From assembly GCA_963706025.1 (NCBI GenBank), contig CAVPLM010000003.1, forward strand, positions 416,001-480,000: a stretch of DNA of 64,000 nucleotides. Direction: 5' to 3'. A program made the position numbers and the translations under genes. The DNA comes from an uncultured Actinomycetes bacterium (GTDB lineage: Bacteria; Actinomycetota; Thermoleophilia; RBG-16-64-13). Below, piece by piece: positions 2-33,649 of the stretch. Numbering within the stretch: the first letter of the stretch is position 1; every line of letters starts with the position of its first letter. Below the pieces are notes generated by a model. It was given only the letters and a program-made list of their open reading frames with translations, was not told the origin of the DNA and searched no databases.

Positions 2-484
2 GGCTCACTGCCGGTATCACTCAACCTTTTCCTGAAGAGGATCGGAGAGCGTCCCTTCTGGAAGGGTGGCCGGATCCAGGATGACCTAATATGCCAGTCT
101 GCCGAGGACCTCGTGCGCGATTTCGATATTCGCACACCTACTGTGGAGACGCACTGCGGAGCGCTGTCCGGCGGCAACATCCAGAAGATGGTGTTGGCAA
201 GAGAGCTCTCCTTCGAACCCAAGGTGGTCGTCTACAACAAACCCACGTACGGACTTGACGTGAAGACCACCCGGGATATCCGGGAGAGGATACGCGAGCT
301 TTCCGAGAAAGAGGACGTCTCCGCGGTGCTCATATCCACCGACCTCGAGGAGCTGCTCGATCTCTGCGATCGCATCGGCGTTATGTTTCGCGGACGTCTG
401 ACGGGCGTTGTGGAGAATCACGGTCCCGGTGTCGAGACTCAGGTCGGCAAGTTGATGCTGGGCGGAAAGGGTGATTCCAGTTGA
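2..484 (+). CDS. ABC transporter ATP-binding protein, C-terminal part (nucleoside/sugar type), 5' end outside window
   Basis: Frame open from base 2; signature LSGGNIQK, PTYGLDV, LISTDLEEL. Confidence 0.9.
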   Translation, partial: GSLPVSLNLFLKRIGERPFWKGGRIQDDLICQSAEDLVRDFDIRTPTVETHCGALSGGNIQKMVLARELSFEPKVVVYNKPTYGLDVKTTRDIRERIRELSEKEDVSAVLISTDLEELLDLCDRIGVMFRGRLTGVVENHGPGVETQVGKLMLGGKGDSS

Positions 485-1665
485 GTGATCCTATCGGTCC
501 TATCGAGAGTGGGCTCGCCGCCGGTCCAGCAGACGGGTCGGCAGAGACCATCGGGAGCGCCGACGTTAGAGTCAGGACCATGGCCCGCAGCAGCTGGAAA
601 AGGGGCTCGGGTCAGGTCACTCGGGCCATCATCGCCATAGTCGTAGCTCTCATCGTCGGGGGGATCATCCTTCTGCTCTTGGGGCGCAACCCGCTCGCCT
701 TCTACGCCGACATCTTCAGGGCCGGTGTTCTGAACGGCGGCTGGCAGGATTCGATCACCCGCATGTCCGTCCTTCTGCTGATGGGCATGGGCTACGTCGT
801 CGCTTTCCGGGGAGGCATCTGGAACATCGGCGGTGACGGCCAGTTCCTGCTGTCCGCAGCTCTCATCGCTGGGGCAGGGCCCGCCTTGTTCGCGGTCATG
901 CCGCAGGGCTGGGCGCTCATCATCCTGGGCCTGATCGGCATCGTGGTCGGGGGCTCTTGGACTATCGTGCCCTCCTACCTGCGGGCCTCGTACGGGCTGA
1001 ATGAGATCATCACCTCGGTGATGATGTCCTTTCTCGGGATCTATCTCGCGAACATCTTGATCAAGGGGCCGTTCCGCAGTGAGGAGACCACGGTCCCGCA
1101 GACCGACGTTATGCCTTTCGATAAGCTGCTTCCGAAGATCCCGGGGACGACGATCCCCGTCGGTATCTTCGTCGCTCTGGCAGCCGTTGTCGGCCTGCAT
1201 TACGTGATGACCCGCACCTCGATCGGTCTGAGGCTGACAGTGATGGGCGCGAACGCTCGTGCGGCACTACATGCCGGCCTGAAAGTCAGGCGGCTCATCA
1301 TGGCGGCGTTCTTCGCGTCGGGTGCGTTCATCGGGCTCGGGGCCGCTATGGAGATCCTCGGGGTCTGGGGGTATATGCGCGCCGACTGGAATCCCAAGTA
1401 CGGGCTGACGCTTTTCGCGTTGGTGTTCCTCGCCCGTTTGAACGCCTTGGCAGTCATCCCCCTAACAGGCCTGTTCGCGGTTCTGACCATCGGTGGTCAC
1501 ACGGCCTCCAGGAACGCCGACCTGCCCAATGACTTCATGCTTCTGCTCGTCGGCCTCATCCTGCTGTTCATGACCCTTTCCGAGCTCATCAGCATCGGCA
1601 AGGCCAGACGCCGCGTCCTTGGTCAGCGGATCGTGCAGGCGCTTAGGTTGGGGAGGGAGCCATGA
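481..1665 (+). CDS. ABC transporter permease (nucleoside/BMP-associated type)
   Basis: Multiple TM segments; AFRGGIWNIGGDGQ and NEIITSVM motifs typical of this permease family; start uncertain. Confidence 0.88.
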   Translation: MSDPIGPIESGLAAGPADGSAETIGSADVRVRTMARSSWKRGSGQVTRAIIAIVVALIVGGIILLLLGRNPLAFYADIFRAGVLNGGWQDSITRMSVLLLMGMGYVVAFRGGIWNIGGDGQFLLSAALIAGAGPALFAVMPQGWALIILGLIGIVVGGSWTIVPSYLRASYGLNEIITSVMMSFLGIYLANILIKGPFRSEETTVPQTDVMPFDKLLPKIPGTTIPVGIFVALAAVVGLHYVMTRTSIGLRLTVMGANARAALHAGLKVRRLIMAAFFASGAFIGLGAAMEILGVWGYMRADWNPKYGLTLFALVFLARLNALAVIPLTGLFAVLTIGGHTASRNADLPNDFMLLLVGLILLFMTLSELISIGKARRRVLGQRIVQALRLGREP

Positions 1666-2588
1666 CCGTCGCTTTTTGGACGTCGCTTCTAAGCGGGATG
1701 GTCCTTGCCGGGATGCCGCTGCTTTTCACCAGCCTGGGCGAGACGATCTCGGAGCAATCCGGCATTCTCAATATCGGTCTCGAAGGCATGATGCTCGTAG
1801 GGGCGTACGCGGGATTTGTGGCCGCCTTGTACTCGCACTCTCCCTGGGTGGGTGTGATTGCAGGTATCGCAGCCGGAATGGTCATGTCGTCTATCATGGC
1901 CGTCTTCTGTGTGCGTTTGGGCTTGGATCAGATCGTGGTCGGTATCGCCATCTTACTTCTCGGCGAAGGTTTGACCAGCCTCCTTCATGGGGCCCAATTC
2001 GGTACTTCCTACCCTCGCCTTGAGGGGATGATGAGAATCGAGATCCCTCTTCTGTCGAAGATCCCGGTCATCGGCCCGAGCATCTTCAGCCAGCCCCTGA
2101 TCTTCTGGGTGGGAATCGCCCTGGTGATCGTCGTGCGCTGGGTGCTCAGGTCCACCAACTGGGGACTTAATATCCGCGCCGCGGGGGAAAAGCCCGGTGC
2201 GTTGGACGCTGCCGGGGTCAACGTCACCTGGACCCGGACGGCGGCCGTTCTTGCGACCGGTGGTTTCGCGGGCATCGGCGGTGCCTACATGGCCATCGTT
2301 GCGTCGGGGATCTTCGTGCCCTTCATGACCAACGGCCTTGGGTTCATCGCCATCGTGATCACCATGCTCGCGCGGGGCCGCGCCTTGTGGGCACTGGTTG
2401 GCTCGTTCCTGTTCGGCATCTGTCTGCAGATCGGGACCTCGCTGCAGGTGGCGGGGATCAATATCCCCACCGACGTCATCTTCATGCTGCCGTTCTTGGT
2501 GGTCATGATCGTCCTCATCATCTCCGCCCGCCAGGCTTATCTGCCGGCGGCTCTTTGTGTCCCCTACAAGCGCGGGCAACGAGGATGA
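1662..2588 (+). CDS. ABC transporter permease (second subunit)
   Basis: GETISEQSGILNIGLEGMM, IRAAGEKP..LDAAGVNV; ATGA overlap with upstream gene. Confidence 0.9.
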   Translation: MTVAFWTSLLSGMVLAGMPLLFTSLGETISEQSGILNIGLEGMMLVGAYAGFVAALYSHSPWVGVIAGIAAGMVMSSIMAVFCVRLGLDQIVVGIAILLLGEGLTSLLHGAQFGTSYPRLEGMMRIEIPLLSKIPVIGPSIFSQPLIFWVGIALVIVVRWVLRSTNWGLNIRAAGEKPGALDAAGVNVTWTRTAAVLATGGFAGIGGAYMAIVASGIFVPFMTNGLGFIAIVITMLARGRALWALVGSFLFGICLQIGTSLQVAGINIPTDVIFMLPFLVVMIVLIISARQAYLPAALCVPYKRGQRG

Positions 2589-2645
2589 GTCGCGGCGACC
2601 AGCTGGCGACCATCCCTCCTGGCCGAATGAAAGGAGTTGGTGCAG

Positions 2646-3821
2646 ATGCGCCCCGCTGATTTTACTGTGAGCGCAGGCCCCACCACGGTCTCGGCCGAGG
2701 TCATGGCGGCCATGGGTCAACCCATCATCTACCACTACGACCCCTCATTTCTGGAGACTTTCAAGAGAACCGTCGACAAGGCGGCCGAGGTCTTCGGGAC
2801 CAAAGAAGACGTGATACTGATGCAGGGAGAGGCGGTCGTTGGCCTCGAGGCCGCAGGCAGGGCTTGTGTCCGGCCGGGAATGAAGGTGGTCAACCTCGTT
2901 TCCGGGGTATTCGGCAAAGGCATGAGCGACTGGCTCAACATGTGGGGCGCGGACGTCATCGATATCACCGTGCCTTACAACGACGCCATAGCGCCCGAGG
3001 CCGTCGAGGAGGCTCTCAAGGAGCATCCCGACGTCGAGCTCGTGGCCATGGTGCACTCGGAGACGCCGTCGGGCACTCTCAATCCGGTGGCGGAGATCGG
3101 TCCGATGGTGCGGGCCCATGGGGCGGTCAGTATCGTAGACTGCGTCTCGTCGCTCGCCGGCATGCCGTTCCACCCGGATGAGTGGCAGTTGGACATCTGC
3201 GTCTCGGGGGCCCAGAAGTGCCTTTCCGGACCTCCCGGGATAACCCCGATGACTGTGAGCAAGCAGGCCTGGGCCCTCATCGACAAGAATCCGGCCGCGC
3301 CTCGCTGGTCTTTTGTGGCTCTGCTCGATTGGCGCGAGATCTATCTGAAGGGCGGTCGCTTCCCGTTTACCCCCTCGGTTTCCGACGTATTCGGACTGGA
3401 AGCCTGCCTCGACTGGGTGCTGGAGCAGGGCATCGACAATGCCATTGCCCAGCACACTATCGCCGCGGAGGCCTGCCGGGCGGGAGCGAAAGCCATGGGT
3501 CTCAAGCTGTGGGCCAGGAGCGAGGCCATTATGTCCACCTGCACCACGGCCATCACCGTTCCCGAGGGGTTGACCGACATCCAGGTGCGCAATCATGTGC
3601 GCGAGCGCTACGGGGTACAGATCTCAGCCGGCCAGAACGCCGGCAACCTGATCCGCATCGGCCACATGGGCGTCACCGCGCGGTCGCTGTACCCGGTCGT
3701 GGGGCTTTCCGCCGTCGGTCGCGGTCTCACTGACCTGGGGGCGAAGGTCGACGTGGGGGCTGGTGTCGAAGCTGCTCTCGAGATCATCAGCAGGGCTGCC
3801 GCACGAGGAGGTGCCAGTTGA
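2646..3821 (+). CDS. ppaT: Class V aminotransferase, pyridoxamine-pyruvate aminotransferase-like
   Basis: YDPSF, QGEAVVGLEAA, SGVFGKG, VPYNDAI, TPSGTLNP, IVDCVSS, QKCL (Schiff-base Lys), NPAAPR, FPFTPSVS, RIGHMG; these follow the Mesorhizobium loti PPAT sequence as I recall it; RBS AAGGAG upstream. Confidence 0.75.
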   Translation: MRPADFTVSAGPTTVSAEVMAAMGQPIIYHYDPSFLETFKRTVDKAAEVFGTKEDVILMQGEAVVGLEAAGRACVRPGMKVVNLVSGVFGKGMSDWLNMWGADVIDITVPYNDAIAPEAVEEALKEHPDVELVAMVHSETPSGTLNPVAEIGPMVRAHGAVSIVDCVSSLAGMPFHPDEWQLDICVSGAQKCLSGPPGITPMTVSKQAWALIDKNPAAPRWSFVALLDWREIYLKGGRFPFTPSVSDVFGLEACLDWVLEQGIDNAIAQHTIAAEACRAGAKAMGLKLWARSEAIMSTCTTAITVPEGLTDIQVRNHVRERYGVQISAGQNAGNLIRIGHMGVTARSLYPVVGLSAVGRGLTDLGAKVDVGAGVEAALEIISRAAARGGAS

Positions 3822-4228
3822 GCCACGTGGAGTTCGACAAGGACAAGTGCACGGACTGTCGCATGTGCATGCAGATCTGTTCGATGAACAAGCTGGGGCG
3901 GGTTACGCCGGCAGCGGCGTGCATCCAGATCGATAGGGAGCGCTCCAAGTACTACGGCGACATGGGCTGCCGGGTCTGCGACATGACCCACGAGCGGGCC
4001 TGCGTGGATGCCTGTCCGGTGGAGGCGCTGATCTACGAGCCGGATCTGGACGTGGTCCGGTTCGACGCCGAGTTGTGCACGGAATGCCTGGCCTGTCTGG
4101 ACGTCTGCCCGAATGTGGCGAGAGATGTGAGGTCCGGCCGGATAATGATCTGCGACCTTTGCGACGGCGACCCCTTGTGTGTCAAGTGGTGCCCCGAAGG
4201 CGCGCTCTCATGGGGGGCAGAGGCATGA
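3818..4228 (+). CDS. Multi-[4Fe-4S] polyferredoxin subunit (AOR partner)
   Basis: CTDCRMC..C, CRVC..C..CP, CTECLAC..CP, CDLC..C..CP; overlaps flanking genes. Confidence 0.9.
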   Translation: MSHVEFDKDKCTDCRMCMQICSMNKLGRVTPAAACIQIDRERSKYYGDMGCRVCDMTHERACVDACPVEALIYEPDLDVVRFDAELCTECLACLDVCPNVARDVRSGRIMICDLCDGDPLCVKWCPEGALSWGAEA

Positions 4229-6030
4229 AATACGGCGGATACATGGGCAAGTTCCTCACCGTCGATCTTTCGACCGGTGCCACCGGCACTTGGGACACCC
4301 CGGACGAAATGGCGGAGAAGTACCTTGGCGGCCGCGGGTTCATCGCCAAGATGCTCTACGATCGGCTGGCGCCGAAGATCGATCCCTTGGGACCCGAGAA
4401 CGTGATCATCTTCGCCACCGGCCCGGCGACGGGGACTCTGGTGCCCACCACAGGGCGGATCGCCATCGGCGTGAAGAGCCCACTCACCAACACCATCTCG
4501 GCAAGCTACCTGGGCGGCCACTTCGCCGGTCAGGTGAAGTACGCGGGCTACGACGGGATCATCATCACGGGGGTCTCGCCGACGCCGGTGACCCTGGTGA
4601 TCGATGACGACAGAGTCAGTCTGCGCGATGCCTCGGGCATCTGGGGCAAAGACACCAAAGAGTCGCAGGACATCCTGCGGGCGGAGTTGGGCGAAGGCTT
4701 CGAGATCGGCGCCATCGGCCCGGCGGGAGAGAATCTGGTGCCCATCGCCACCTTCATGCACGTGCAGAGAGCAGCCGGTCGTGGTGGGTCCGGAGCGGTG
4801 TTCGGCTCCAAGAAACTGAAGGCCGTGGCGGTGCGCGGCACGGGCGGCATCAGCGTGGGGACGCCGGCGAACGAGTTCATCCAGGGTTGCAAGGAGATGC
4901 ACGACATCATCATGGCCAACCCGGTGCGGCCCGCCTTCCGGTATGCCGGCACGACGGGCATGCTCCCGGTAATGAACGAGGTCGTGGGGTTGCCCTACAT
5001 GAACCATCAGGACGACAAGGCTCCGGATGTGAGCTTCATCCACAACGAGGAGATCTACAAGTACGTCAACAAGATCGAATCATGCGCCGGCTGCAATGTG
5101 TTCTGCGGCGCGGTGGTGGAGTTCGAGCGAGGTGGGAAGCGCTATCGCACCGAGCGCTTGGATCACGAGTCGACCTGGGCTCTCGGTCCCAACTGCGGGA
5201 TCGTCGATCTCCCGGCTCTCATGGAAGCCAACATGCTCTGCGACTATCTGGGCCTCGACACCATGAGCGCGGGCGGCGCGATCTCCTGGGCCATGGAGAT
5301 GACGCAGCGGGGTCTGCTCAGCAAAGAGGAGACGGACGGCCTGGACTTCAGTTTTGGCAACGCCGACGTCTTGGCCCCCGCCATCCGGAGCATGGCCGCC
5401 CGGCAGGGATTCGGCGATCTCCTGGCCCGAGGCAGCCGGGAAGCGGCCCGACTCGTCGGCCGGGGTGAGGAATACGCCATGCAGGTGAAGGGGCTGGAGA
5501 TGTCGGCCTATGCGCCCCGGGGCTTCACCGGCATGGGCTTGAGCTTTGCCACCACCAGCCGAGGAGCCGATCACAACAAGGCCTTCACGGTGGCGGCCGA
5601 GTTTCTAGGGGTGCTCGGGAACTACGACCGTTACGCGCTGGAAGGCAAGCCTCATCTGGTCAAGACCATGCAGGACAGCACCTGCATCATCGACTCGCTC
5701 ATCATGTGTATGTTCACCGTGGACCTAGGGATCGGCATCGATCTGTATGCCAAGTGCGCGGCTCTGCCCACGGGAATGAGGTTCACCGAAGAGGACGTCT
5801 ACACGGTGGGTGAGCGCATCAATACGGTCGAGCGCCTGTTCAACATGAACGAGGGGTTCACTCGCGCTGACGACAATCTTCCGCCGCGTTTTGCCAGAGA
5901 AGCGGCGCCGTCCGATCCGGGGCACCACACCTTGGACGTGACGGCCGTTATGGACGAGTACTACGCGGAGCGCGAGTACGACAGCGAGGGTGTGCCCACT
6001 CCGGCTCTGCTGGAGAGATTGGGTATCTAG
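4225..6030 (+). CDS. Aldehyde:ferredoxin oxidoreductase (W/Mo-pterin AOR family) no. 1
   Basis: YLGGRG, KSPLT, AAGRGGSGAVFGSKKLKA, CAGC..C, CDYLGLDTMS, RGADH; true start MKYGGYMG at 4225. Confidence 0.93.
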   Translation: MKYGGYMGKFLTVDLSTGATGTWDTPDEMAEKYLGGRGFIAKMLYDRLAPKIDPLGPENVIIFATGPATGTLVPTTGRIAIGVKSPLTNTISASYLGGHFAGQVKYAGYDGIIITGVSPTPVTLVIDDDRVSLRDASGIWGKDTKESQDILRAELGEGFEIGAIGPAGENLVPIATFMHVQRAAGRGGSGAVFGSKKLKAVAVRGTGGISVGTPANEFIQGCKEMHDIIMANPVRPAFRYAGTTGMLPVMNEVVGLPYMNHQDDKAPDVSFIHNEEIYKYVNKIESCAGCNVFCGAVVEFERGGKRYRTERLDHESTWALGPNCGIVDLPALMEANMLCDYLGLDTMSAGGAISWAMEMTQRGLLSKEETDGLDFSFGNADVLAPAIRSMAARQGFGDLLARGSREAARLVGRGEEYAMQVKGLEMSAYAPRGFTGMGLSFATTSRGADHNKAFTVAAEFLGVLGNYDRYALEGKPHLVKTMQDSTCIIDSLIMCMFTVDLGIGIDLYAKCAALPTGMRFTEEDVYTVGERINTVERLFNMNEGFTRADDNLPPRFAREAAPSDPGHHTLDVTAVMDEYYAEREYDSEGVPTPALLERLGI

Positions 6031-6073
6031 CCGGTTTTCGGATGCTTCTGGCCGAGGAAGAGGAGGAACGGCT

Positions 6074-6313
6074 ATGCGGGTGGAGGTAGCCTTGTTTGGT
6101 CAATACTCGCGGCTGCTCCCTCCGGAGAGCAAGAACGGGCGTGCGGCTCTCGAGGTGGATCAGGCGGCCACGGTCGGCCGAGTGCTGGACCGGCTCCAGA
6201 TACCTCCCGAGGGTCGGACCTACGTGACGGTGAACGACAAGCATGTCGGTCAAGAGACCGTCTTGTCGGAGGGCGACGAGATCCGGGTGATAGTCCCGCT
6301 CGGCGGCGGTTGA
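6074..6313 (+). CDS. MoaD/ThiS sulfur-carrier protein
   Basis: 79 aa ending in VPLGGG (C-terminal Gly-Gly); RBS AGGAGG; adjacent to AOR. Confidence 0.88.
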   Translation: MRVEVALFGQYSRLLPPESKNGRAALEVDQAATVGRVLDRLQIPPEGRTYVTVNDKHVGQETVLSEGDEIRVIVPLGGG

Positions 6314-6362: not shown

Positions 6363-7154
6363 ATGATCAGACAGGCGCGCAACAAAGGTATTCCGCTGTA
6401 CTACCAGGTGATGCGGAGCCTGAAGGAGGACATCCTTTCGGGACGCTGCGCCCCCGAGAAGCAGCTTCCTTCAGAGGCTGAGCTCACGAAGATCTTCAAC
6501 GTGAGCCGTGTGGTGGTGCGGCAGGCGCTCGAGATGCTGGAAGATGAGGGTCTGATCGTGCGAGTCCGGGGCAAGGGGACCTTCGTATCCAAAGACGCGG
6601 CGGCGGATGAAGCCCCCGTGCTCTCCGGCTATATCGAGGATTTCCTGCGCGTAGGCTGGGCCCTTGAGGTGAAGGTACTGGAGTTCGGGCTCGTCAAGGC
6701 CAGTCCCGATCTGGCTTCGGTCTTCAAAGTGGCGGAGGCCAGCGATCTCTTCCACGTGAAACGGCTCCGCCTGGTCGAGAGCCGGCCGTTCTCGGTCGTC
6801 GAGAACTACCTACCCTACGAGTTGGGAAGGCATATTCCCATGGCGCTTCTGGAAGACGAGCCGCTCATGACCCTGATCGAGAAGCATGTGGGGGTCTCCA
6901 TCGAATGGGCGTCCCAGGTCTTTCAGGCGGTCTCGGCCGACGCCGATCTGGCCGCTCTTCTGGATGTCGACGTCATGGCTCCCATCTTGAAGATGACGCT
7001 CACCGCATACACCGCGGAGAGCGAAGCGGTGAATTTCGCCAACGTCTACTACCGGTCCGATCGTTACAACCATCACGGCTACCTGCGCCGGCGGCGAACA
7101 AGCGACCATCTGACGTGGACCGCGGTCGAACGCATCCACGCGATGGGGGCTTGA
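6363..7154 (+). CDS. GntR family regulator, HutC/UTRA subfamily
   Basis: PLYYQV..LPSEAEL..VSRVVVRQAL..RVRGKGTFV plus C-terminal UTRA domain. Confidence 0.92.
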   Translation: MIRQARNKGIPLYYQVMRSLKEDILSGRCAPEKQLPSEAELTKIFNVSRVVVRQALEMLEDEGLIVRVRGKGTFVSKDAAADEAPVLSGYIEDFLRVGWALEVKVLEFGLVKASPDLASVFKVAEASDLFHVKRLRLVESRPFSVVENYLPYELGRHIPMALLEDEPLMTLIEKHVGVSIEWASQVFQAVSADADLAALLDVDVMAPILKMTLTAYTAESEAVNFANVYYRSDRYNHHGYLRRRRTSDHLTWTAVERIHAMGA

Positions 7155-7182: not shown

Positions 7183-8220
7183 ATGCGGGCTTTACGTCTC
7201 ATGGCGGCGGGGGATCTCAGGGTGGACGACGTACCCGATCCCCAGATCAAGAACGGCAAGAACGCCGTCCTCGCGGTCACCAAGACCGCCATATGCGGAG
7301 CCGATCTCCTGCCCTATTGGGGCTATGTGCCGGGTTTCGAATGGGGCACCACAATGGGGCACGAGTTCGTCGGCGTGGTTAAGGAGGTGGGCGCGGCGGT
7401 CGCTCAGGTCAAGCCCGGTGACCGGGTCGTGTGCTCCTCGATGACCTCGTGCGGTGTGTGCTGGGCCTGCCGCCGTGGGATGCAGCCACAGTGCGAGAAC
7501 CGGGCTCTTTTCGGCTTTTCCGGGGCGTACCCGCGGTTGGACGGAGGCCAGGCCGAGCAGGTGCTGGTCCCCAACGCCGACCGCGACCTGTGGCTACTCC
7601 CGCCTGAAGTGTCCGATGATGCCGGGGTGTTCGTGGCCGACATTCTCTCCACCGCCTTTCGTGGGGTCGAGCAGGCCGACGTCAAGATGGGCGATACGGT
7701 AGCGGTGGTCGGATGCGGTCCTGTCGGTCTCATGGCCATCCTGAGCGCACGGCTCATCGCGGGAATGGTCATCGCCGTGGACACGGTCCCAGCGCGGCTC
7801 GAACAGGCTCAGGCCATGGGGGCGGTGACCATCGATGCCTCCACTCAGGATGCCGTGGCCGCTGTGATGGACCTCACCGGCGGACGCGGTGCCAAGGCGG
7901 TCATCGAGTGCGCAGGCGGAGTCCCTGCACTCACGTCCGCCATGCAGATGGTGCGGGTGCGGGGCACCGTGAGCGTTATCGGCGCTCACTTCGAGCCCGA
8001 TTTCCCCTTGGACGCGGGAGGCATGTTCGCCAAGGAAACCACCTTGAGGTTCTCGATCGGAGCTCCAACCGACGATCGCGAGACAGTGCTCGACCTGCTC
8101 CGGCTGGGCAGGATCGATCCCACGCCCACGATCTCCCATCACATGAGTCTGGAAGATGCGCCCGAGGCCTACAAGCTTTTCGAGGCTCGGGAGGCCACCA
8201 AAGTGGTGTTGACGCCCTAG
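7183..8220 (+). CDS. Zn-dependent (MDR) alcohol dehydrogenase
   Basis: ICGADL, GHEFVG, structural Zn CGVCWACRRGMQPQC, GCGPVG Rossmann motif. Confidence 0.92.
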   Translation: MRALRLMAAGDLRVDDVPDPQIKNGKNAVLAVTKTAICGADLLPYWGYVPGFEWGTTMGHEFVGVVKEVGAAVAQVKPGDRVVCSSMTSCGVCWACRRGMQPQCENRALFGFSGAYPRLDGGQAEQVLVPNADRDLWLLPPEVSDDAGVFVADILSTAFRGVEQADVKMGDTVAVVGCGPVGLMAILSARLIAGMVIAVDTVPARLEQAQAMGAVTIDASTQDAVAAVMDLTGGRGAKAVIECAGGVPALTSAMQMVRVRGTVSVIGAHFEPDFPLDAGGMFAKETTLRFSIGAPTDDRETVLDLLRLGRIDPTPTISHHMSLEDAPEAYKLFEAREATKVVLTP

Positions 8221-8312: not shown

Positions 8313-9461
8313 ATGGCGAACGCGCAGTTCTTTTTCTTGGGTACGAGGCTGGTTCACGGTCTTGGTGCGGTCGCGGGCCTCGCGGGGCACGTGAAGGCCC
8401 TGGGCGGTACCAAGGTCTTCTTGTGCACGGACAAGGGTCTCAGCAGCGCGGGGGTGACCGAGAAGGTCGCCGGCGTCTTGGCGGCGGATGAGATCCCGTT
8501 CGTGACTTTCGACGACGTGCCGGAGGATCCCGGGGTCGCGGTGGTGGATGCGGGGGTTAAGCTTTTCCAAGAGGAGAAATGTGACCTGGTCGTGGCTCTC
8601 GGCGGCGGTAGCCCGATGTGCGCGGGCAAAGGCATCGCCCTGGTGGCCATGAACGGAGGCAAGCTGACCGACTACGAAGGATTCAACAAGGCAGCCAAGG
8701 CTCCGTATCCCGTGATAGCGATCCCCACGACCGCCGGGTCGGGCACCGAGGTGTCGAAGGTCAACATCCTCACCGATGAGGCCCGCAACTTCAAGATGTC
8801 CTTCCTGGACGAACGGACCTTCCCGAAGATCGCTCTTCTGGACGGGGAATTGATGGCGTCGCTTCCGGCAAGACCGGCGATCGTGGCCGGCATGGACGCA
8901 CTGGCCCACGCTCTGGATGCCCTGTGGTCCGTCAACTCCACCCAGATATCGGACAGCCTGGGGGTCGCGTCCGCGGCCACCATCTTCGAGACTCTGCCCC
9001 GAGCGGCGTTCACCGGCGACCTGGCAGCCAAGCAGAAGATGCTGGAGGCCAGCTCGATTGCCAACATCGCGCTGGGGACGGCACTCCCCGGCTTGGCTCA
9101 CGTACTGTCGCAGCCCCTGGGCAGGTATCACATGGCTCACGGCCTGGCCACGGGCATCATGCTTCCCTACACCATGGAGTTCAACCTTCCCGTGGCCGCG
9201 GCCAAGATGGCGCCCATCGCCCGGCTGCTCGGCGAGAGCGGGAGCGACCGGGAGCTGGCTGAGGTGTTGCTCGAGCGGCTGTGGGGACTCATGGGCGAGT
9301 TGGACTTCCCCACCTTCCTCGACCCCGAAGTGGTGAAGGAAGAAGACCTGCCCGTCTTGGTAGAACAGTGCACCAAGGTCGTCAACTACCGCCTGAACGT
9401 GAGGTTTGCTTCTCCCGCCGACCTCACCGGCCTGTATCTGTGTGCACTCGGAAAGGAGTGA
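8313..9461 (+). CDS. Iron-containing (group III) alcohol dehydrogenase
   Basis: GGGS, IPTTAGSGTEVS, DALAHA, LAH, HG metal ligands. Confidence 0.92.
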   Translation: MANAQFFFLGTRLVHGLGAVAGLAGHVKALGGTKVFLCTDKGLSSAGVTEKVAGVLAADEIPFVTFDDVPEDPGVAVVDAGVKLFQEEKCDLVVALGGGSPMCAGKGIALVAMNGGKLTDYEGFNKAAKAPYPVIAIPTTAGSGTEVSKVNILTDEARNFKMSFLDERTFPKIALLDGELMASLPARPAIVAGMDALAHALDALWSVNSTQISDSLGVASAATIFETLPRAAFTGDLAAKQKMLEASSIANIALGTALPGLAHVLSQPLGRYHMAHGLATGIMLPYTMEFNLPVAAAKMAPIARLLGESGSDRELAEVLLERLWGLMGELDFPTFLDPEVVKEEDLPVLVEQCTKVVNYRLNVRFASPADLTGLYLCALGKE

Positions 9462-9463: not shown

Positions 9464-11345
9464 ATGGAGGCGACACCTCGTGGCTCCTGGTGGGGCAGGA
9501 GTCCTTTTCGTCGATGTTGGTACCGGCGAGACGCGGGAGGAAGCCCTGGACTGGGACGCGGCCCGCGATTTCATCGGCGGGCGCGGCCTCGGAGCCTACT
9601 ACCTCTTCAAGCATCTGGTGCCGGGCACCGACCCCTTGAGCCCGGACAACCCGCTGATCTTCGCGGGCAGCCCCATGTCGGGCACCTCCTGCCCCGGCTC
9701 GGCCCGGGGCGCGGTGGTGACCAAGTCGCCCCAGAGCGGGATCTACACGTTCGCGATCACCGGGGGCGAGCTGGGACCGGCCCTCAAGCGGTCGGGCTAC
9801 GACGTGATCATCCTCACCGGCAAAGCCGAGAAGCCGGTCTACGTGGAAGTGGGTCCGGACGGCGCAGAACTACGTGACGCTTCTCATCTCTGGGGCTTGG
9901 ACACACAGTCGACCCAGGAACTCATCAAGAAAGAGCGACGGGGTGAAGACCTGGCCATCACCTGCATAGGGCAGGGAGGCGAGCGGCTGGTGCCTTACGC
10001 CTGCCTGATCAACGAGCGTCGCGCTCTTGGCCGGGGCGGTCCGGGTGCTGTCATGGGCTCGAAGAACGTGAAGGCCCTTGTGATCAAGAAAGACGGACCC
10101 GCGGCGCCGCTCGCCGATCCGGCGGCGTTTCGCGAGGCTGCGCGAAACGCCACCTTCCAGTGCCGCGACAACCCCTTTACCTCGGGGCCACTGAAGACGT
10201 TCGGGACGGTGAGCACTGTGGCAGTCACCGTCAACGGGGCCATCATGCCGGCGGACAACTGGCAGCGCATGACCACTGTCGAGGAGGGCAAGAACCTTTT
10301 CGGCAACGTGCTCCGCGAGAAGTTCTTGGTCAAAGACGTGGCCAGCGGCGAACCCTGCAACATCAAGTGCTCGAAGATCACGGTGGTGAAGGACGGACCC
10401 TTTGCCGGCGCCTCGACGGAAGGACCGGAGTACGAGACCATCTATGCTTTCGGCACCGGCTGCGGCATCTTCGACTTCGCGCCCATCATCGAAGCCGACA
10501 GGATGTGTGACCTCTATGGCATCGACACCATGTCGGTGGGAGTGACCATCATGTTCGCCATGGAATGCTACGAGAAGGGTCTCATCACCAAGGAAGACAC
10601 CGGCGGCATCGACCTGCGTTTCGGCAATGCCGAGGCCATGGTGAAGCTGGTGCACGACGCTGCTTTCCGGCAAGGCTTCGGCGAGAAGATCGCCAGGGGC
10701 TGCCGCGCCCTGGCTGCCGAGATCGGGCAAGGCAGCGAAGCCTTCGCCATGCACACCAAGGGCGTGGAGGTCGGCGGGTACGACCCGCGGGGCGCCAAGG
10801 GCATGGCCCTGGTCTACGGTTGCGGCCCCCGGGGCGGCTGCCACCACGCCGGTGGCTACACCGTCCAGTTGGAGTTCACCAATCCCGATATCGACCGCTA
10901 TGCCGACTCGGGCAAAGTCCCCATCGTCCTCATGACCCGTAACCGCAGGGCCGCGGCAGCGGACTCGGGCGGTACCTGCGCGTTCCTCACGGTGGGCATG
11001 GACAACGACGTCCTCGCCGGCATGCTCTCGGCAGCCACCGGCAATCCGATGACGGTGCAGGACATGATGCTGGCGGGCGAGCGGATCAGCATGCTGGAGC
11101 GGGTGCTCAACGTGCGCGAAGGTCTGCGGGCTGCAGACGACGTTATTCCCCGGCGGCTGATCGAGGAGAGCGTCCCCGACGGACCGACCGCGGGACACAT
11201 GGTCGATTGGGATCTCATGCATAGGGAGTTCTATCAAGCCAGCGAACTGGACCCGATAACGTCGCTCCCCACCAAGGATAAGCTTGCGAAGATGAACCTG
11301 ACCTGGGTGCTCGACGATCCTGTGGTCGCGGCCCTGGCCGGCTAA
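9464..11345 (+). CDS. Aldehyde:ferredoxin oxidoreductase no. 2 (1-nt indel near 9500)
   Basis: ATG 9464 with RBS AAAGGAG gives MEATPRGSWWGR, which continues in another frame as VLFVDV; FIGGRGLG, GRGGPGAVMGSKNVKA, EGPEYET, RGGCH. Confidence 0.92.
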
Positions 11346-11354: not shown

Positions 11355-12950
11355 GTGGCCTACTACCGCGACTTCAGGGAGTACGTCGCGAAGCTGGATG
11401 AGATGGGCCTGTTGCGGCGGGTCTCCACCCCCATCAACAAGGATACGGAGCTGATGCCGCTGGTCAGGCTCCAGTTCCGGGGACTACCGCCGGAACAGCG
11501 TACCGCCTGGGTGTTCGACAACATCCACGACGTGCTGGGCAAGAAGTACAACGGGTCTCTGGCCGTCTGCGTGCTCGGCGGAAATCGCGCGATCTATGCG
11601 GCAGCCCTGGGCTGCGAACCGGAAGAGATCAGCAAGAAGTGGGCCCAGGCCCACCAGAGCTGCATCGAGCCGAAGCTGGTCAAGGACGGGCCCTGCAAGG
11701 AAGAGATCCACGTGGGCGACAACCTGCTCGAGCACGACGGCATCCTGGAGTTCCCCCATCCCATATCGACGCCCGGCTTCGATCCCGCGCCCTTTTTTAC
11801 GTCGCCCTACTGGGTGACGAAGGACCCCGAGACCGGCCAGCGCAACATCGGCACGTACCGGGCCATGGTCAAAGGACCGGCCCGCACCGGGGTGATGGCC
11901 CACCAGTCGCAGCACATAGGTATCCACTTCCAGAAGATCCAGCGGCAGGGTGAGCATCGCCTGGATGCCGCGGTGGTCATCGGCTGCGCACCGGCCGTGG
12001 GTTTGTGCAGCGTGGCCAAGGTGCCGTACTCGGTGGACGAATACACGCTGGCGGGGGGTATCGCGGGCGAGCCCATCGAGCTGGTGAAGTGCGAGACTGT
12101 TGACCTGGAGGTGCCGGCGACGGCCGAGATCGTCATCGAAGGCTGGGTGGACACCACCTTCCGGGAGAAGGAAGCCCCCTTCGGCGAGTACACCGGGTAC
12201 ATGGGCGGCCGGGTGATCAACCCGGTCTTCAACGTGACCGCCATCACCCACCGTAAGAACCCCATCTATCAGGCGTTCCTCAGCCAGTTCCCTCCCTCAG
12301 AGAGCAGCCTCATCCGCAAGCTGGCCTATGACGCCGCCTATCTCAAATTCCTGCAGCACGACTGCAACATCCCAGGCGTGCTCGATGTGCAGTTGCATGA
12401 GTCCACCGGCAGTTACGGGCTGATGGTGATCCAACTCAATAAGACCCATCCGGCCCAGCCTTGGCAGGCTTTGAACGCGGCCGTGGCCTTCGATCCCACT
12501 ATCGGCAAGGTGATCGTGGCCGTGGACGACGACATCGATCCCAACGACGCCGACGCCGTGAACTGGGCCATGGCCTTCCGCATGCAGCCTCACCTCGACA
12601 CTCGGATCACCACCGGCAAGGCGTCCATCCTCGATCCCTCGTCGGCGCCGCCGGAGGCTTCGGTGGACGTGCAGCGCTTCCCGCCGCCGGTGGGGACGTC
12701 GTCTCTGCTCATCGATGCCACGAGGAAGTGGGGCTACCCGCCCACTTCGCTCCCGGCCAAGGAGTTCATGGAGGCGGCGCTCGAACGGTGGCAGGCGGAG
12801 GGCCTGCCGGCGCTCAGTCTCAAGAAACCATGGTTCGGCTACGAGCTGGGCCACTGGACCGACGAAGAACGCGAGGACGCCGCCAAAGCCATCCGCGGCG
12901 AGTACCTCGACACCGGCGAGAAGCTTCAACAACATCGCGAGGATCTGTGA
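11355..12950 (+). CDS. ubiD: UbiD-family prFMN-dependent (hetero)aromatic acid decarboxylase
   Basis: NIGTYRAM, VPATAEIVIEG, EAPFGEYTGY, VDDDID, LDPS, LIDAT. Confidence 0.93.
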   Translation: MAYYRDFREYVAKLDEMGLLRRVSTPINKDTELMPLVRLQFRGLPPEQRTAWVFDNIHDVLGKKYNGSLAVCVLGGNRAIYAAALGCEPEEISKKWAQAHQSCIEPKLVKDGPCKEEIHVGDNLLEHDGILEFPHPISTPGFDPAPFFTSPYWVTKDPETGQRNIGTYRAMVKGPARTGVMAHQSQHIGIHFQKIQRQGEHRLDAAVVIGCAPAVGLCSVAKVPYSVDEYTLAGGIAGEPIELVKCETVDLEVPATAEIVIEGWVDTTFREKEAPFGEYTGYMGGRVINPVFNVTAITHRKNPIYQAFLSQFPPSESSLIRKLAYDAAYLKFLQHDCNIPGVLDVQLHESTGSYGLMVIQLNKTHPAQPWQALNAAVAFDPTIGKVIVAVDDDIDPNDADAVNWAMAFRMQPHLDTRITTGKASILDPSSAPPEASVDVQRFPPPVGTSSLLIDATRKWGYPPTSLPAKEFMEAALERWQAEGLPALSLKKPWFGYELGHWTDEEREDAAKAIRGEYLDTGEKLQQHREDL

Positions 12951-12981: not shown

Positions 12982-14208
12982 ATGGCCGATCTATCCGTCG
13001 ATTTTGCGGGTCTTAAGCTCAAGAACCCGTTCATCATCGCGTCGTCCGAGCTGACCAACAAGATCGACAAGATCAAGATCGCCGAGGAGCATGGAGCCGC
13101 GGCCGTCAGCACCAAGCTGACCTTCTTGCAGATCCCTCTGTACGCCCGTCCCTATCACATCATCGAAAAGGAGGGCGCCTTCTACTCGCCTTCCGGTGAG
13201 CGCATGCGGGTAGATCAGACCCAGCGACTCGTCCAGCAGTGCAAGGAGCAGACCGACCTCAAGGTCATCGCCAACATGATGGGTCCGGGTGAGGATCTGG
13301 AGGGCTGGGCGAAGCTGGCCCGCGCTCTGGAAGAAGCCGGCGCCGACATGCTGGAGCTCAACATGTCCTGCCCGAACCTGGGTCTGATGGCAAAGCAGAT
13401 GGGTGTGGACGAGGAGCCGGAGCTGGGGGCGACACTCGGCAAGGACCCGGTGCTGGCCGGGAAAGTGACCAAGGCCGTCACCGACGCCGTGAAGATCCCT
13501 GTCATGCCCAAGATGACCCCTGAGGCCAACACCATGATGGTGTCGAAGTCGGTCCAGAAGAACGGCGCCGCGGCCGTCTCGGCCATCAACTGCCCACAGT
13601 CGCTGCCCCCGCTGGACATCGACCACGGTGGCCGGCCGTTCTATCCCTCCACCGGCAACCAGTCCTACGCCGGCCTCTGCGGTCCTTGGATCCGGCCGCT
13701 GGCCTATCGGCACGTGGCTCAGATGCGCACCGTCTGCCCCGACCTGCCCATCGCCGGCGGCGGCGGGCTGATGAACTGGCGCCATTCGGTAGAGATGATC
13801 ATGTACGGCGCCACCGTGCTCACTTACTGTTCGCTGCTCTACCTCAAGGGCTACAAGGCCTTCACCAAGATAGAGCCGGGCATGCACAAGTTCATGGACG
13901 AGCACGGCTACAAGACCCTGGCCGACATGCGGGGGATCGCGCTCGAGTACATCGTCACCCCCAAAGAGGTGGACTACATACCGATGCTCCCGGAGTTCGA
14001 CCTGGAGAAGTGCAACGGTTGCGGGCTGTGCGCCGCGCCGGGGCATTGTGAGTGCATCGAGATCGTGGACAAGAAGGCCGTGCTGGTGCAACCGAAGGAA
14101 TGCTATTCCTGCGCCGTCTGCTACTTCCTCTGCCCGAAAGACGCGATCACCATGAAGAACGCGCCGATCGAAGAGACCCGGGCAGGTGTGGCGCTGATGG
14201 AGCAGTGA
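12982..14208 (+). CDS. Dihydropyrimidine dehydrogenase PreA-like FMN protein with C-terminal ferredoxin domain
   Basis: LKNPFIIAS, ELNMSCPN (catalytic Cys), PKMTP, AIN; C-terminal CNGCGLC..C and CYSCAVC..CP. Confidence 0.88.
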   Translation: MADLSVDFAGLKLKNPFIIASSELTNKIDKIKIAEEHGAAAVSTKLTFLQIPLYARPYHIIEKEGAFYSPSGERMRVDQTQRLVQQCKEQTDLKVIANMMGPGEDLEGWAKLARALEEAGADMLELNMSCPNLGLMAKQMGVDEEPELGATLGKDPVLAGKVTKAVTDAVKIPVMPKMTPEANTMMVSKSVQKNGAAAVSAINCPQSLPPLDIDHGGRPFYPSTGNQSYAGLCGPWIRPLAYRHVAQMRTVCPDLPIAGGGGLMNWRHSVEMIMYGATVLTYCSLLYLKGYKAFTKIEPGMHKFMDEHGYKTLADMRGIALEYIVTPKEVDYIPMLPEFDLEKCNGCGLCAAPGHCECIEIVDKKAVLVQPKECYSCAVCYFLCPKDAITMKNAPIEETRAGVALMEQ

Positions 14209-14233
14209 CCGGCTGCGGGAAGGAGTGTGAGGC

Positions 14234-15127
14234 ATGAAGGCTTTTGAATACCTGCGTCCGGCGTCGATCGAGGAGGCGTGCGCGCTCCTGGCCGCCGGTG
14301 ATGGCTCGGTGAAAGTCCTGGCCGGCGGGACCGACCTGCTTGTGCAGATGAAGCAGGGGAAGCTGCAGCCGGAAGCGCTGATCAGCCTTAGGGACGTCCC
14401 CGGGCTTTCGTTCATCCGGCTGGATGGTGACGGGGGCCTTTCACTGGGGGCGGCCACTCCTCTGGGGTCAGTAGAGAGGTCCCCCGAGGTGATCAAGGGC
14501 TTCCCGGCCATTGCGGAGGCGGCCTCATGGATCGGGTCCGTGCAGGTGCGCAGCCGGGCCACCGTGGGAGGCAACCTGTGCAACGCCGCTCCCTCCGCCG
14601 ACATGGCCCCCATCTTGATCGCATTCGGAGCTGAGGCGGTCATTGCTGACGGAGGCGCCGAGCGCACGGTGCCGCTCGAAGACTTCTTCACCGGACCGGG
14701 CCGGACGGCGCTCGGGCCGGGTGAACTGCTCAAGGCCATCAAAGTACCACCGGCGCCCGCCAGGAGTTTTGGAAAATACGTCAAGGCCTACCGGTCCGCG
14801 ATGGACCTCGCCACGGTGGGGGTGGGGGCGCTGGTGGTCTTCGCGCCTGGTTCCGCGCGCTCCCCGGGTGTCGTGGAGGACGTTCGCTTGGTCCTCGGGG
14901 CCGTGGCGCCCACGCCCATCCGTGCGCGCGAAGCCGAGCGGATGCTGACCGGTCACACGCTGGATGAGGAGGTGATCGCGCAGGCGAGCCGCAAAGCCGC
15001 GGAGGAAGCCCGGCCGATCACCGACGTACGCGCCTCGGCCGAGTACCGGACCACCCTGGTGGAGGTCCTGTCTCGCAGGGCTCTTCTTGCGGCGTACTCC
15101 TGGGCCGGAAAAGGAGGACGAGAGTGA
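14234..15127 (+). CDS. Xanthine dehydrogenase family FAD subunit
   Basis: AGGTDL, QVRSRATVGGNLCNAAPSAD, DVRASAEYR; no [4Fe-4S] insert. Confidence 0.92.
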   Translation: MKAFEYLRPASIEEACALLAAGDGSVKVLAGGTDLLVQMKQGKLQPEALISLRDVPGLSFIRLDGDGGLSLGAATPLGSVERSPEVIKGFPAIAEAASWIGSVQVRSRATVGGNLCNAAPSADMAPILIAFGAEAVIADGGAERTVPLEDFFTGPGRTALGPGELLKAIKVPPAPARSFGKYVKAYRSAMDLATVGVGALVVFAPGSARSPGVVEDVRLVLGAVAPTPIRAREAERMLTGHTLDEEVIAQASRKAAEEARPITDVRASAEYRTTLVEVLSRRALLAAYSWAGKGGRE

Positions 15128-15606
15128 AGAGAGAGCTGCACATAACGGTCAACGGCGATGAGTACCATCTGTTCGTCGATGTGCGCCGCACCCTCCTCGA
15201 TGTGATCCGGGAAGACATCGGTCTGACCGGCACCAAGAACAGCTGCGGCGCCGGTGAATGCGGCGCCTGCACGGTATTGCTCGACAACGAGCCGGTCAAC
15301 TCCTGCCTGGTGCTCGCTCACGAGGCCGATGGGCAGGACGTGGTGACCATCGAGGGCCTTGCCCAGGGAGGCGTGCTTCATCCGGTCCAGGAGGCCTTTG
15401 TGGAGCAGGGCGCCATCCAGTGCGGCTTCTGCACGCCGGGCATGGTCATGTCCACGAAGGCCCTGCTCGACCGGAAGCCCAATCCGACCCGGGACGAGAT
15501 CCTCCACGGGCTGAAAGGGAACCTCTGCCGGTGCACAGGCTACGTGAAGATCATCGACGCCGTCGAAGCGGCGAGCTGCCTGCTCGGGGAAGGGGAGTCC
15601 GCATGA
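15124..15606 (+). CDS. Xanthine dehydrogenase family [2Fe-2S] subunit
   Basis: CGAGECGAC..C, QCGFCTPG, NLCRCTGY. Confidence 0.95.
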   Translation: MKRELHITVNGDEYHLFVDVRRTLLDVIREDIGLTGTKNSCGAGECGACTVLLDNEPVNSCLVLAHEADGQDVVTIEGLAQGGVLHPVQEAFVEQGAIQCGFCTPGMVMSTKALLDRKPNPTRDEILHGLKGNLCRCTGYVKIIDAVEAASCLLGEGESA

Positions 15607-17885: not shown

Positions 17886-17906
17886 TCACGTGCAGTAGTC
17901 ACGTGC
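17881..17906 (+). repeat. 13-bp tandem duplication AGTAGTCACGTGC x2
   Basis: Exact duplication spanning the xdh stop and yqeC start. Confidence 0.85.
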
Positions 17907-21095: not shown

Positions 21096-21113
21096 ATTAG
21101 AAGGAGGTTCATC

Positions 21114-22118: not shown

Positions 22119-22550
22119 ATGGGTGAGGATACGGGGGACGGCGAGAAGAGAGCCGGCGGGATCAACGACGTCGAAAGCGCACTCGAGAAGATATGCGTGG
22201 TCGATCTCAGCGAGGGTAAACGGACCGACCTGCCCGACGGAAGCTGGGTGTGCGAATTGGTATCGAAGGCCTTGAACGGGGCGGAGGGCACCTGCATGGG
22301 CTTCTCCACGTGGAAGCCGGGGGCCTCGACGAAGCAGATGGTGCACGAGACCGAGGAGATGGCCTATATCGTCTGCGGCGAAGGTAAGCTCTCGGTCGGC
22401 GACAAGTTTGTCTCGTACAAGGCCGGCCAGGGAGTGCTCATCCCGGCGGGGGTCCCGCACGGAGTGGTCAACGATTCCGATGAGGATATGACCATGGTCT
22501 ACATCTTCTCCTATCCAGAGTACCCGCCGACGAAGGCGGCCGGAGAGTAG
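22119..22550 (+). CDS. Cupin domain protein
   Basis: VHETEEMAYIVCGEG ... IPAGVPHGV. Confidence 0.85.
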   Translation: MGEDTGDGEKRAGGINDVESALEKICVVDLSEGKRTDLPDGSWVCELVSKALNGAEGTCMGFSTWKPGASTKQMVHETEEMAYIVCGEGKLSVGDKFVSYKAGQGVLIPAGVPHGVVNDSDEDMTMVYIFSYPEYPPTKAAGE

Positions 22551-25004: not shown

Positions 25005-25031
25005 GTGACAGGACTGTCCAGGTGATATAAT
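25005..25031 (+). promoter_or_regulatory. Extended -10 promoter for hdr-flx operon
   Basis: TGaTATAAT at 25023-25031; GTGACA 15 nt upstream of the -10. Confidence 0.55.
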
Positions 25032-28850: not shown

Positions 28851-28863
28851 AAAGGCGGTGAAG

Positions 28864-33633: not shown

Positions 33634-33649
33634 CCGCGCGCTCCTTTCG

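Follow-up and report, generated by a model that had tools for sequence, protein, structure and literature searches.

A probable pyridoxamine-pyruvate aminotransferase-type enzyme encoded in a vitamin B6 context in an uncultured member of the Thermoleophilia

The DNA analyzed here is a stretch of 64,000 nucleotides (the window, in what follows) from an uncultured Actinomycetes bacterium of the class Thermoleophilia (assembly GCA_963706025.1, contig CAVPLM010000003.1, positions 416,001 to 480,000 of the forward strand), and the gene in question encodes a class V aminotransferase, P0001, located between genes for a putative vitamin B6 transporter and genes for a polyferredoxin and an aldehyde:ferredoxin oxidoreductase (AOR). 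With a probability of about three in four, P0001 is an aminotransferase of the pyridoxamine-pyruvate aminotransferase (PPAT) type, for which an unphosphorylated B6 vitamer is the substrate and not a bound cofactor. The open frame, at 2646-3821 on the plus strand, translates to 391 amino acids, of which residues 58 to 71 read LMQGEAVVGLEAAG and residues 325 to 342 read QISAGQNAGNLIRIGHMG. The features of this gene are as follows.

2630..2636, plus strand: Shine-Dalgarno-like AAAGGAG, 9 nt before the ATG (read from the sequence)
2646..3821, plus strand: PPAT-like class V aminotransferase P0001, 391 aa (profile, structure, alignment and tree evidence)
2823-2825, plus strand: codon of Gln60 (codon check)
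2826-2828, plus strand: codon of Gly61 (codon check)
2829..2831, plus strand: codon GAG of Glu62, aligned with the Glu of HGE in the Mesorhizobium loti PPAT structure 2z9u (HMMER alignment and 121-row alignment)
3216..3218, plus strand: codon of Lys191, which stands opposite K197, the lysine that forms the Schiff base in PPAT (HMMER alignment)
3633..3635, plus strand: codon of Gln330, in a column where canonical PPATs have Arg; the loop that follows is 2 residues shorter (alignments)
3654..3656, plus strand: codon of Arg337 in RIGHMG, the conserved Arg of class V enzymes (alignments)

The start codon is the ATG at 2646, because AAAGGAG lies 9 nt upstream and the consensus of the homologues begins at the same residue. 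A TTG at 2637 is an unlikely start, since it directly abuts the Shine-Dalgarno-like site; third-position G+C was 0.79 in the reading frame called from this TTG, which spans the ATG 2646 frame.

Searched with HMMER against solved structures, P0001 matched M. loti PPAT best (2z9u; E value of 3.9e-108, 365 bits), followed by PucG (3isl, 151 bits; 3nnk, 150 bits) and by structures of the alanine-glyoxylate aminotransferase (AGT) type at 110 to 140 bits. The top NCBIfam model was likewise that of PPAT (NF046070, 432.4 bits), with BhcA next at 210 bits, and Pfam returned Aminotran_5 (PF00266, 83.7 bits) only. An AlphaFold model of P0001 built from a 23-sequence alignment (pLDDT of 94.8, pTM of 0.92) had 2z9u_A as its closest fold in Foldseek, with a TM score of 0.94, a root mean square deviation of 1.5 Å over 384 columns and 43% identity, compared with TM scores of 0.91 for PucG and 0.86 to 0.92 for ordinary class V structures. 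Identity to three alphaproteobacterial homologues (L094, L095 and L096) was 44 to 45%, so that P0001 stands at ~43 to 45% identity to PPAT overall (EC 2.6.1.30, M. loti/japonicum, PDB 2Z9U-2Z9X, NF046070). An earlier note on this DNA, made from the letters alone, had read QGEAVVGLEAA in the product of 2646..3821, which the translation bore out, and had given HGEPVLGLEAA and, near the C-terminus, SGRG from M. loti PPAT; both are printed in the alignment, where 'vilhgepvlgleaa' of 2z9u stands opposite 'vilmqgeavvgleaa' of P0001 and 'fssgrgetlgkltrighmg' opposite 'isag..qnagnlirighmg'. The alignment with PPAT that the note proposed as a check and the comparison of the AlphaFold model with solved folds both put 2z9u on top.

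In M. loti PPAT, Glu68 reportedly blocks the phosphate site, and Arg336 and Arg345 reportedly bind the substrate carboxylate. In the alignment, Glu62, Phe89, Thr140, Asp165, Lys191 and Arg337 of P0001 correspond to Glu68, Tyr95, Thr146, Asp171, Lys197 and Arg345 of PPAT (the chain numbering of 2z9u is the published numbering minus one). As stated in a 2022 review, K197 forms the Schiff base with pyridoxal and D171 pairs with ring nitrogen N1 (PMC9309667). P0001 thus shares with PPAT the phosphate-site Glu, the Schiff-base Lys, the Asp to N1, the ring aromatic, the segment 'FPFTPSVS' and the Arg of RIGHMG; it differs in having Gln60, Ala63 and Phe89 where PPAT has His, Pro and Tyr, and Gln330 in place of the second arginine, with a loop 2 residues shorter.

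To judge whether Glu62 could be a chance feature, P0001 was aligned with 91 aminotransferase genes from 85 genomic loci (L numbers) and 29 representatives taken from an all-against-library search. The 121 rows comprise 4 canonical PPATs, 106 other PPAT-like sequences and 11 ordinary class V representatives, and they differ at five positions of P0001.

Position 62: E in 4/4 canonical and 104/106 other PPAT-like rows (D in 2); in class V rows, S in 8, T in 2 and P in 1
Position 63: A or P in PPAT-like rows; G in 11/11 class V rows
Position 64: V or I in PPAT-like rows; T in 7, R in 2 and S in 2 class V rows
Position 239: F in 100/110 PPAT-like rows; T, Y, S, F or H in class V rows
Position 141: P in 106/110 PPAT-like rows; S in 10/11 class V rows

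In total, 108 of the 110 PPAT-like rows have Glu at position 62, as against none of the 11 outgroup rows; Glu62 is thus not a chance feature. Because positions 62, 63, 64, 239 and 141 all differ, the phosphate cradle is remodeled in the manner of PPAT throughout the clade, and by more than one substitution. The small-residue motif of the GSGT type that the earlier note had ascribed to ordinary class V enzymes was found as S/T-G-T in the 11 representatives. Residues K191, D165, T140 and R337 were conserved across the alignment, Lys191 in 105 of 106 PPAT-like rows and in all 4 canonical and 11 class V rows. Beyond the alignment, a regular expression for [MLF]QGE matched 112 of 121 sequences (P0001 and its 120 best database homologues, 62 to 96% identical; the other 9 are misses of the expression and were not inspected) and one for the lysine motif matched 119 of the 121. 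Glu was also present in 20 of 20 aminotransferase genes from a class sample, by which we mean 201 genomes of the window's class, each at least 90% complete, in which PPAT-like genes were called at E<=1e-80. The group is large: among 8000 candidates scored, 3518 database proteins matched P0001 at E<=1e-20.

These data bear on whether P0001 might instead be an ordinary PLP (pyridoxal 5'-phosphate)-dependent class V aminotransferase of the alanine-glyoxylate or serine-pyruvate type. Such enzymes share the fold and the catalytic Lys, Asp and Arg, all of which P0001 has; Pfam sees nothing more specific than Aminotran_5; and NCBI lists three close relatives (P0005, P0034 and P0071) under the name 'alanine--glyoxylate aminotransferase family protein'. 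However, AGT/serine-pyruvate aminotransferases and PucG, which score 110 to 151 bits against P0001, have an S/T-G-T(H) phosphate cradle and T or Y at the position of Phe239, whereas P0001 carries E-A-V at 62-64, as PPAT does (A or P at the second place). With AGT-type structures at 110 to 140 bits against 365 for PPAT, and with a genomic context of vitamin B6 (see below), we consider this assignment very unlikely, and the ordinary AGT reading was set aside on the motif, the score lead of PPAT and the B6 context.

Phylogenetic analysis placed P0001 close to the canonical enzymes but not among them. A FastTree tree of the 121 rows and an IQ-TREE tree of 53 rows (quick search, site-mixture model, SH-aLRT support) agreed in separating all Glu-bearing rows from the ordinary class V rows (support of 96 and 97). 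In the IQ-TREE tree, P0001 fell inside a clade from Actinomycetota and Chloroflexota (24 of 53 rows, SH-aLRT of 98), which was sister to a 6-row clade that holds the canonical PPATs (100), the two together being supported at 99. A separate branch of Glu-bearing sequences (L114, L115 and L117) formed its own clade, with support of 100, outside the group of PPAT and P0001.

The second arginine of PPAT calls for closer attention. The Arg of RIGHMG, Arg345 in PPAT, is the conserved carboxylate-binding Arg of class V enzymes, and P0001 keeps it. Arg at the Arg336 column was found only in the 4 canonical alphaproteobacterial rows, in 0 of 106 other PPAT-like rows (Q50/Y26/E9/L4/I3 and others) and in 0 of 11 outgroup rows (Q5/L4/M2). 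Lack of this Arg is thus the commoner and probably the older state; the 2-residue deletion after Gln330 (loop 'S[AGS]GQ[GN]AGNL') is derived in the subclade of P0001. The earlier note had correctly seen that the Arg of SGRG is replaced in SAGQN; on its further suggestion, that keto-acid preference may differ for this reason, an Arg confined to the canonical rows predicts, by its lack elsewhere, nothing definite. If this reading of the column is right, the second arginine would be a lineage-specific addition and no requirement of the family, which bears on annotation rules.

PPAT-like chemistry with a different amine or partner, for example a B6 analogue altered at the 5' position or elsewhere, or an oxo acid that is not pyruvate, might nonetheless be proposed from the missing Arg and from the derived deletion that marks the P0001 subclade. 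It would also accommodate the paralogues with different loops that occur inside single loci; side by side in such loci we observed 'GQGAGNL', 'GYGELKEKL' and 'SDGEHGDMT' at the substrate loop. We regard this as improbable. The Arg is likewise missing from ordinary class V enzymes whose substrate is pyruvate or glyoxylate, as the 11 outgroup rows illustrate, and the short-loop subclade adjoins pyridoxal 4-dehydrogenase and lactonase genes at equivalog level in two loci, which favors pyridoxal as the product. In these loci, L087 (58.5% identical to P0001) and L051 (56.7%), both of whose aminotransferases have the P0001-type short loop, the neighbors scored 381 and 374 bits as pyridoxal 4-dehydrogenase (cut-off, 325), 389 and 372 bits as 4-pyridoxolactonase (cut-off, 325) and, below the cut-off of 500, 398 and 413 bits as best-matching FHMPC dehydrogenase. 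It follows that the short-loop, Arg-less subclade occupies the place of PPAT in the classical pathway.

The surroundings of P0001 in its own genome point to vitamin B6 as well. Three genes of an ABC transporter lie directly before it.

2..484, plus strand: C-terminal end of an ABC transporter ATP-binding protein whose gene begins upstream of the window (NF047930)
481..1665, plus strand: ABC permease, 'putative B6 ABC transporter permease subunit 2' (NF047929, 412.2 bits, passing the cut-off of 400; Pfam BPD_transp_2)
1662..2588, plus strand: ABC permease, nearest to 'putative B6 ABC transporter permease subunit 1' (NF047928, 424.8 bits, just below the cut-off of 465; Pfam BPD_transp_2)

The upstream part of the ATP-binding protein (L093:16835-17998) scored 481.8 bits, as a partial match, with the model of the 'putative B6 ABC transporter ATP-binding protein' (NF047930; cut-off, 670), and a BMP-type B6 substrate-binding protein upstream of the window scored 356 bits (NF047927; cut-off, 400, not reached). 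About 4 kb upstream of P0001, on the opposite strand, is a 4-pyridoxolactonase gene that passes its cut-off (NF047925, 380.1 bits; cut-off, 325). Between lactonase and binding protein, ~0.4 to 1.2 kb before the start of the window, we also observed a conserved 244-aa gene (L093:14827-15561, plus strand), 86% identical in L001 and 73% in L018, with HxH and other metal-hydrolase-like motifs; it had no NCBIfam match. A transporter of the same BMP type, a lactonase-family gene and a GntR regulator are likewise found near a PPAT named by PGAP on a Rhizobium daejeonense plasmid, so that P0001 resembles PPAT in its neighborhood too. The earlier note had made the P0001 gene itself the main anchor of the substrate assignment, and here we differ: P0001 reaches 432 of the 600 bits asked by its model, whereas the lactonase (380 against 325) and a permease (412 against 400) pass theirs, and the context is one of vitamin B6 on evidence independent of the P0001 gene. 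The note's central claim, a PPAT-type enzyme with the free vitamer as substrate, is supported by the closest structure, by NF046070, by the remodeled phosphate site and by this context.

The same context weighs on a PucG-like ureidoglycine-glyoxylate aminotransferase of purine breakdown. PucG was the second-best solved match (151 and 150 bits; TM score of 0.91), and Pfam finds XDH-family, cupin and M20 hydrolase genes in the window. But PucG trails PPAT by more than 200 bits and itself has the motif 'dgtsragiea', the transporter and the lactonase match B6-specific curated models, and no allantoin-pathway model was matched among the cluster proteins scanned. We consider a PucG function extremely unlikely, and the purine reading was set aside on the score gap, the PucG motif and the B6-specific context.

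On the other side of P0001, in the same direction, lies a long series of genes.

3818..4228, plus strand: polyferredoxin with several 4Fe-4S motifs, starting from a TTG that overlaps the P0001 stop in TTGA (Pfam Fer4 families)
4225..6030, plus strand: AOR1, of the aldehyde:ferredoxin oxidoreductase family; its ATG overlaps the ferredoxin stop in ATGA (Pfam AFOR_N, 250.6 bits; AFOR_C, 393.3 bits)
5990..6313, plus strand: ThiS/MoaD-like small protein, start uncertain (Pfam ThiS, E value of 3.2e-10)
6363..7154, plus strand: GntR/UTRA regulator (Pfam)
7183..8220, plus strand: Zn-dependent alcohol dehydrogenase (Pfam and NCBIfam scan)
8313..9461, plus strand: Fe-dependent alcohol dehydrogenase (Pfam and NCBIfam scan)
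9480..11345, plus strand: AOR2, a second AOR-family protein (Pfam)
11355..12950, plus strand: UbiD-family decarboxylase (Pfam UbiD; TIGR00148, 255.7 bits, cut-off of 244.85)
12982..22550, plus strand: same-strand block of a PreA/DHOD-like flavoprotein, XDH-family FAD and Mo subunits, YqeC/MobA, XdhC, YqeB, an M29-like protein and a cupin

The TTGA and ATGA overlaps of stop and start couple aminotransferase, ferredoxin and AOR1 translationally; the gene of P0001 is thus coupled to ferredoxin and AOR and not, as with PPAT, associated with an NAD-dependent pyridoxal dehydrogenase. It lies in what is probably an operon for taking up and converting vitamin B6, whose enzymes are of oxygen-sensitive kinds. 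From these elements a reaction course can be proposed. Pyridoxamine would enter the cell through the neighboring 'B6' ABC transporter of the BMP type and bind in the cofactor pocket, where Asp165 would pair with the ring nitrogen and Phe89 stack on the ring, while Arg337 would hold a small 2-oxo acid, for which pyruvate and glyoxylate are the most likely candidates. The amino group would move to the oxo acid, with formation of a pyridoxal-Lys191 Schiff base and subsequent release of pyridoxal. Glu62, together with Ala63, Val64 and Phe239, would fill or remove the phosphate-binding site, and PLP or pyridoxamine 5'-phosphate should not be retained. Released pyridoxal would be the likely substrate of the cotranslated polyferredoxin and tungsten-type AOR, which would yield 4-pyridoxate, as the opening step of a variant of vitamin B6 conversion that needs no oxygen. 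Whereas the homology, residues, fold, clade structure and gene neighborhoods are shown by the data, the PLP independence of P0001 is inferred from Glu62, and so are, on other grounds, the choice of oxo acid, the compound on which the AOR acts and the way in which the flux runs. The hand-over of pyridoxal to the AOR is suggested because a Glu-type aminotransferase, which would turn an amine into an aldehyde, is repeatedly paired with an aldehyde oxidoreductase.

This pairing extends beyond the window. The full arrangement is repeated in close relatives (L001, L002, L016 and L018); in three other genomes (L114, L115 and L117) the outlying Glu-bearing branch, whose identity to P0001 is only 35 to 37%, fills this position between a B6-type transporter and Fdx-AOR1; and a locus from Peptococcaceae combines two PPAT-like genes with an AOR and a vitamin-type ECF transporter that has two S components. 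Across 82 related loci, many of them shorter than the 10-kb flanks asked for, the neighbor counts are lower bounds (genes of the low-GC locus L076 were called as longest ORFs).

Two permeases: at least 64/82 loci each
Binding protein: at least 57/82 loci
FAD subunit of an XDH-family enzyme: at least 50/82 loci
Class II aldolase: at least 36/82 loci
M29-like protein: at least 34/82 loci
Cupin: at least 34/82 loci
Luciferase-like oxidoreductase: at least 32/82 loci
Lactonase: at least 17/82 loci
Short-chain dehydrogenase/reductase (SDR) homologue: at least 17/82 loci
FHMPC-dehydrogenase-like gene: at least 13/82 loci
Fdx and AOR: at least 5/82 loci each

Vitamin B6 degradation pathway I, of M. 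loti and Pseudomonas MA-1, runs in outline from PPAT through pyridoxal 4-dehydrogenase, 4-pyridoxolactonase and 4-pyridoxate dehydrogenase to FHMPC dehydrogenase, HMPDC decarboxylase, MHPC oxygenase and AAMS hydrolase (PMC6253932). The window's own genome shares with it the entry aminotransferase and the 4-pyridoxolactonase, and orthologous loci have genes for an SDR pyridoxal dehydrogenase, an FHMPC-dehydrogenase-like protein and a class II aldolase. By contrast, the NAD-, FAD- and O2-dependent steps of pathway I have no counterparts in the window, which instead has two AOR-family proteins, two alcohol dehydrogenases, UbiD, a selenium-linked Mo hydroxylase set and a PreA-like reductase; placing these enzymes at particular steps of the pathway can be only tentative. 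The class II aldolase beside the orthologues matched the M. loti decarboxylase Mlr6791 (2z7b) weakly, at 66 bits and sixth of 13 matches, and was not used as specific evidence. Pfam scans of five related loci and of the cluster genes of the window found none of the enzymes known to open the ring in M. loti, and a lower pathway with the M29-like protein and the cupin may differ from that of M. loti. We noted that these two proteins usually travel with the XDH-family enzyme beside PPAT-like genes; in the window (both at 21114-22550, plus strand) the M29-like protein had a weak Pfam match and no NCBIfam family, and the cupin is small.

Unexpectedly, no match to a PdxS, PdxJ, PdxH or PdxK model was found in the bacterium's own genome (92% complete, 7% contamination), and a purely catabolic role for the imported vitamin is therefore not self-evident. 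PdxS was missing from this genome and from 3 of 3 genomes of the same genus. Phos_pyr_kin gave only subthreshold partial matches in the own genome but passed in 14 of 14 control genomes, and no convincing kinase of the PdxK/ThiD type was found in five further genomes of the main PdxS-lacking family. Of the 201 genomes of the class sample, 22 had a PPAT-like gene and 178 had PdxS; a PPAT-like gene was found in 15 of 23 PdxS-lacking genomes compared with 7 of 178 PdxS-carrying ones. AOR or Hdr-like neighbors accompanied PPAT-like genes at 11 of 13 loci from PdxS-lacking genomes compared with 0 of 7 from PdxS-carrying ones, of which 3 of 7 were of the luciferase-like/M29-like/cupin type. Most of the PdxS-lacking genomes come from a single family or from a few genera of a second one, and thus represent few independent events. 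Three explanations of the association may be considered: a good importer permitted the loss of PLP synthase, the cluster is a salvage device, or the bacteria break down a vitamin that they cannot make.

In the salvage explanation, P0001 would interconvert imported pyridoxamine and pyridoxal for the cofactor needs of a B6 auxotroph, and the AOR might run reductively, turning 4-pyridoxate, formed from 4-pyridoxolactone by the lactonase, into pyridoxal; enzymes of the AOR family can indeed reduce acids with reduced ferredoxin. We consider this possible but unlikely. The absence of PdxS across the genus, the enrichment of PPAT-like genes in PdxS-lacking genomes and the concentration of AOR and Hdr-like neighbors there speak for it. 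However, coupling to an aldehyde-oxidizing enzyme would be counterproductive if pyridoxal were the wanted product, the UbiD, the Se-dependent Mo hydroxylase set, the PreA-like reductase and the hydrolases downstream resemble ring degradation, and the pyridoxal kinase that would complete salvage was not found in the own genome or in the five family genomes. The association may moreover reflect few events among close kin, or a good importer may simply have permitted PdxS loss. Catabolism is kept as the leading reading of the cluster over salvage, since the aminotransferase is translationally coupled to AOR and the genes farther downstream look degradative. A more elaborate proposal, which we regard as doubtful, makes the aminotransferase a valve at the entrance (or exit) of a ferredoxin-linked B6 module that needs no oxygen, in anaerobic Actinomycetota that have lost PLP synthase; in this module the tungsten-type AORs, alcohol dehydrogenases and UbiD would work reductively and lead 4-pyridoxolactone, 4-pyridoxate and perhaps the dicarboxylate back to pyridoxal or pyridoxamine. 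If true, this would be an undescribed salvage route for oxidized vitamin B6; in the weaker form, the same genes would constitute the first anaerobic pathway of B6 degradation.

Several observations weigh against assigning P0001 to the PPAT type, with a free vitamer as substrate. Its 432.4 bits lie below the curated cut-off of 600 of the NF046070 equivalog, and so did the scores of all 8 members tested from the Actinomycetota/Chloroflexota and outlying branches (364 to 510 bits); members of P0001's own clade gave 429 to 453 bits. The second PPAT arginine is lacking, in a loop that is shorter by 2 residues. Several loci contain more than one PPAT-like paralogue (three in L004; two each in L047, L053, L055, L057 and L076), which is odd if all share one reaction. 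The B6 synthesis and salvage models without a match in the own genome belong here too; and no biochemical data on members of the P0001 clade were found in the literature covered. Among the canonical rows, L094 (645 bits) and L095 (640 bits) pass the cut-off and L096 (589.6 bits) falls just under 600; L086, in the canonical sister clade, scored 510 bits. We conclude that P0001, as far as its sequence, fold, phylogeny and context tell, works like PPAT yet scores below the curated cut-off and lacks the second arginine.

PPAT is, to our knowledge, the only characterized aminotransferase family with a free vitamer as substrate. In the literature covered, which mostly did not include subscription journals, neither PPAT relatives from bacteria other than those of the M. 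loti type nor an AOR-based or anaerobic B6 route were described. According to the 2022 review, there is a single sequenced bacterial source of PPAT, and its biological role is unclear (PMC9309667). The Glu signature marks a far bigger group, most of it uncultured, whose members now go under the wrong name of 'alanine-glyoxylate aminotransferase family' or score under the PPAT model cut-off, and the AOR coupling together with PdxS loss raises the question of how anaerobes with neither PLP synthase nor a known pyridoxal kinase acquire or dispose of B6.

Some further features of the window deserve mention. The YqeC/MobA fusion, XdhC and YqeB genes (17903-21095, plus strand; YqeB, TIGR03309, 353.7 bits, cut-off of 220) adjoin the Mo-hydroxylase subunits, which suggests that this molybdenum hydroxylase is selenium dependent; the top model for its large subunit was 4-hydroxybenzoyl-CoA reductase alpha, at 670 bits and below the cut-off of 995. 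A trio of Fer4, CCG-domain and HdrA-like genes lies at 25031-29478 (plus strand), 3 kb past the cluster, and this trio directly follows the PPAT-like gene, without AOR, in four related genomes (including L017 and L019 11100-14800). A second XDH-family large subunit (57628-60123, plus strand) is 30% identical to that of L087, and a distant lactonase-like gene of the metallo-beta-lactamase fold (53896-54783, plus strand) is 27% identical. Finally, a DarT gene (ssDNA thymidine ADP-ribosyltransferase) adjoins a macro-domain gene at 32569-34462 on the minus strand, the usual layout of a DarTG toxin-antitoxin system.

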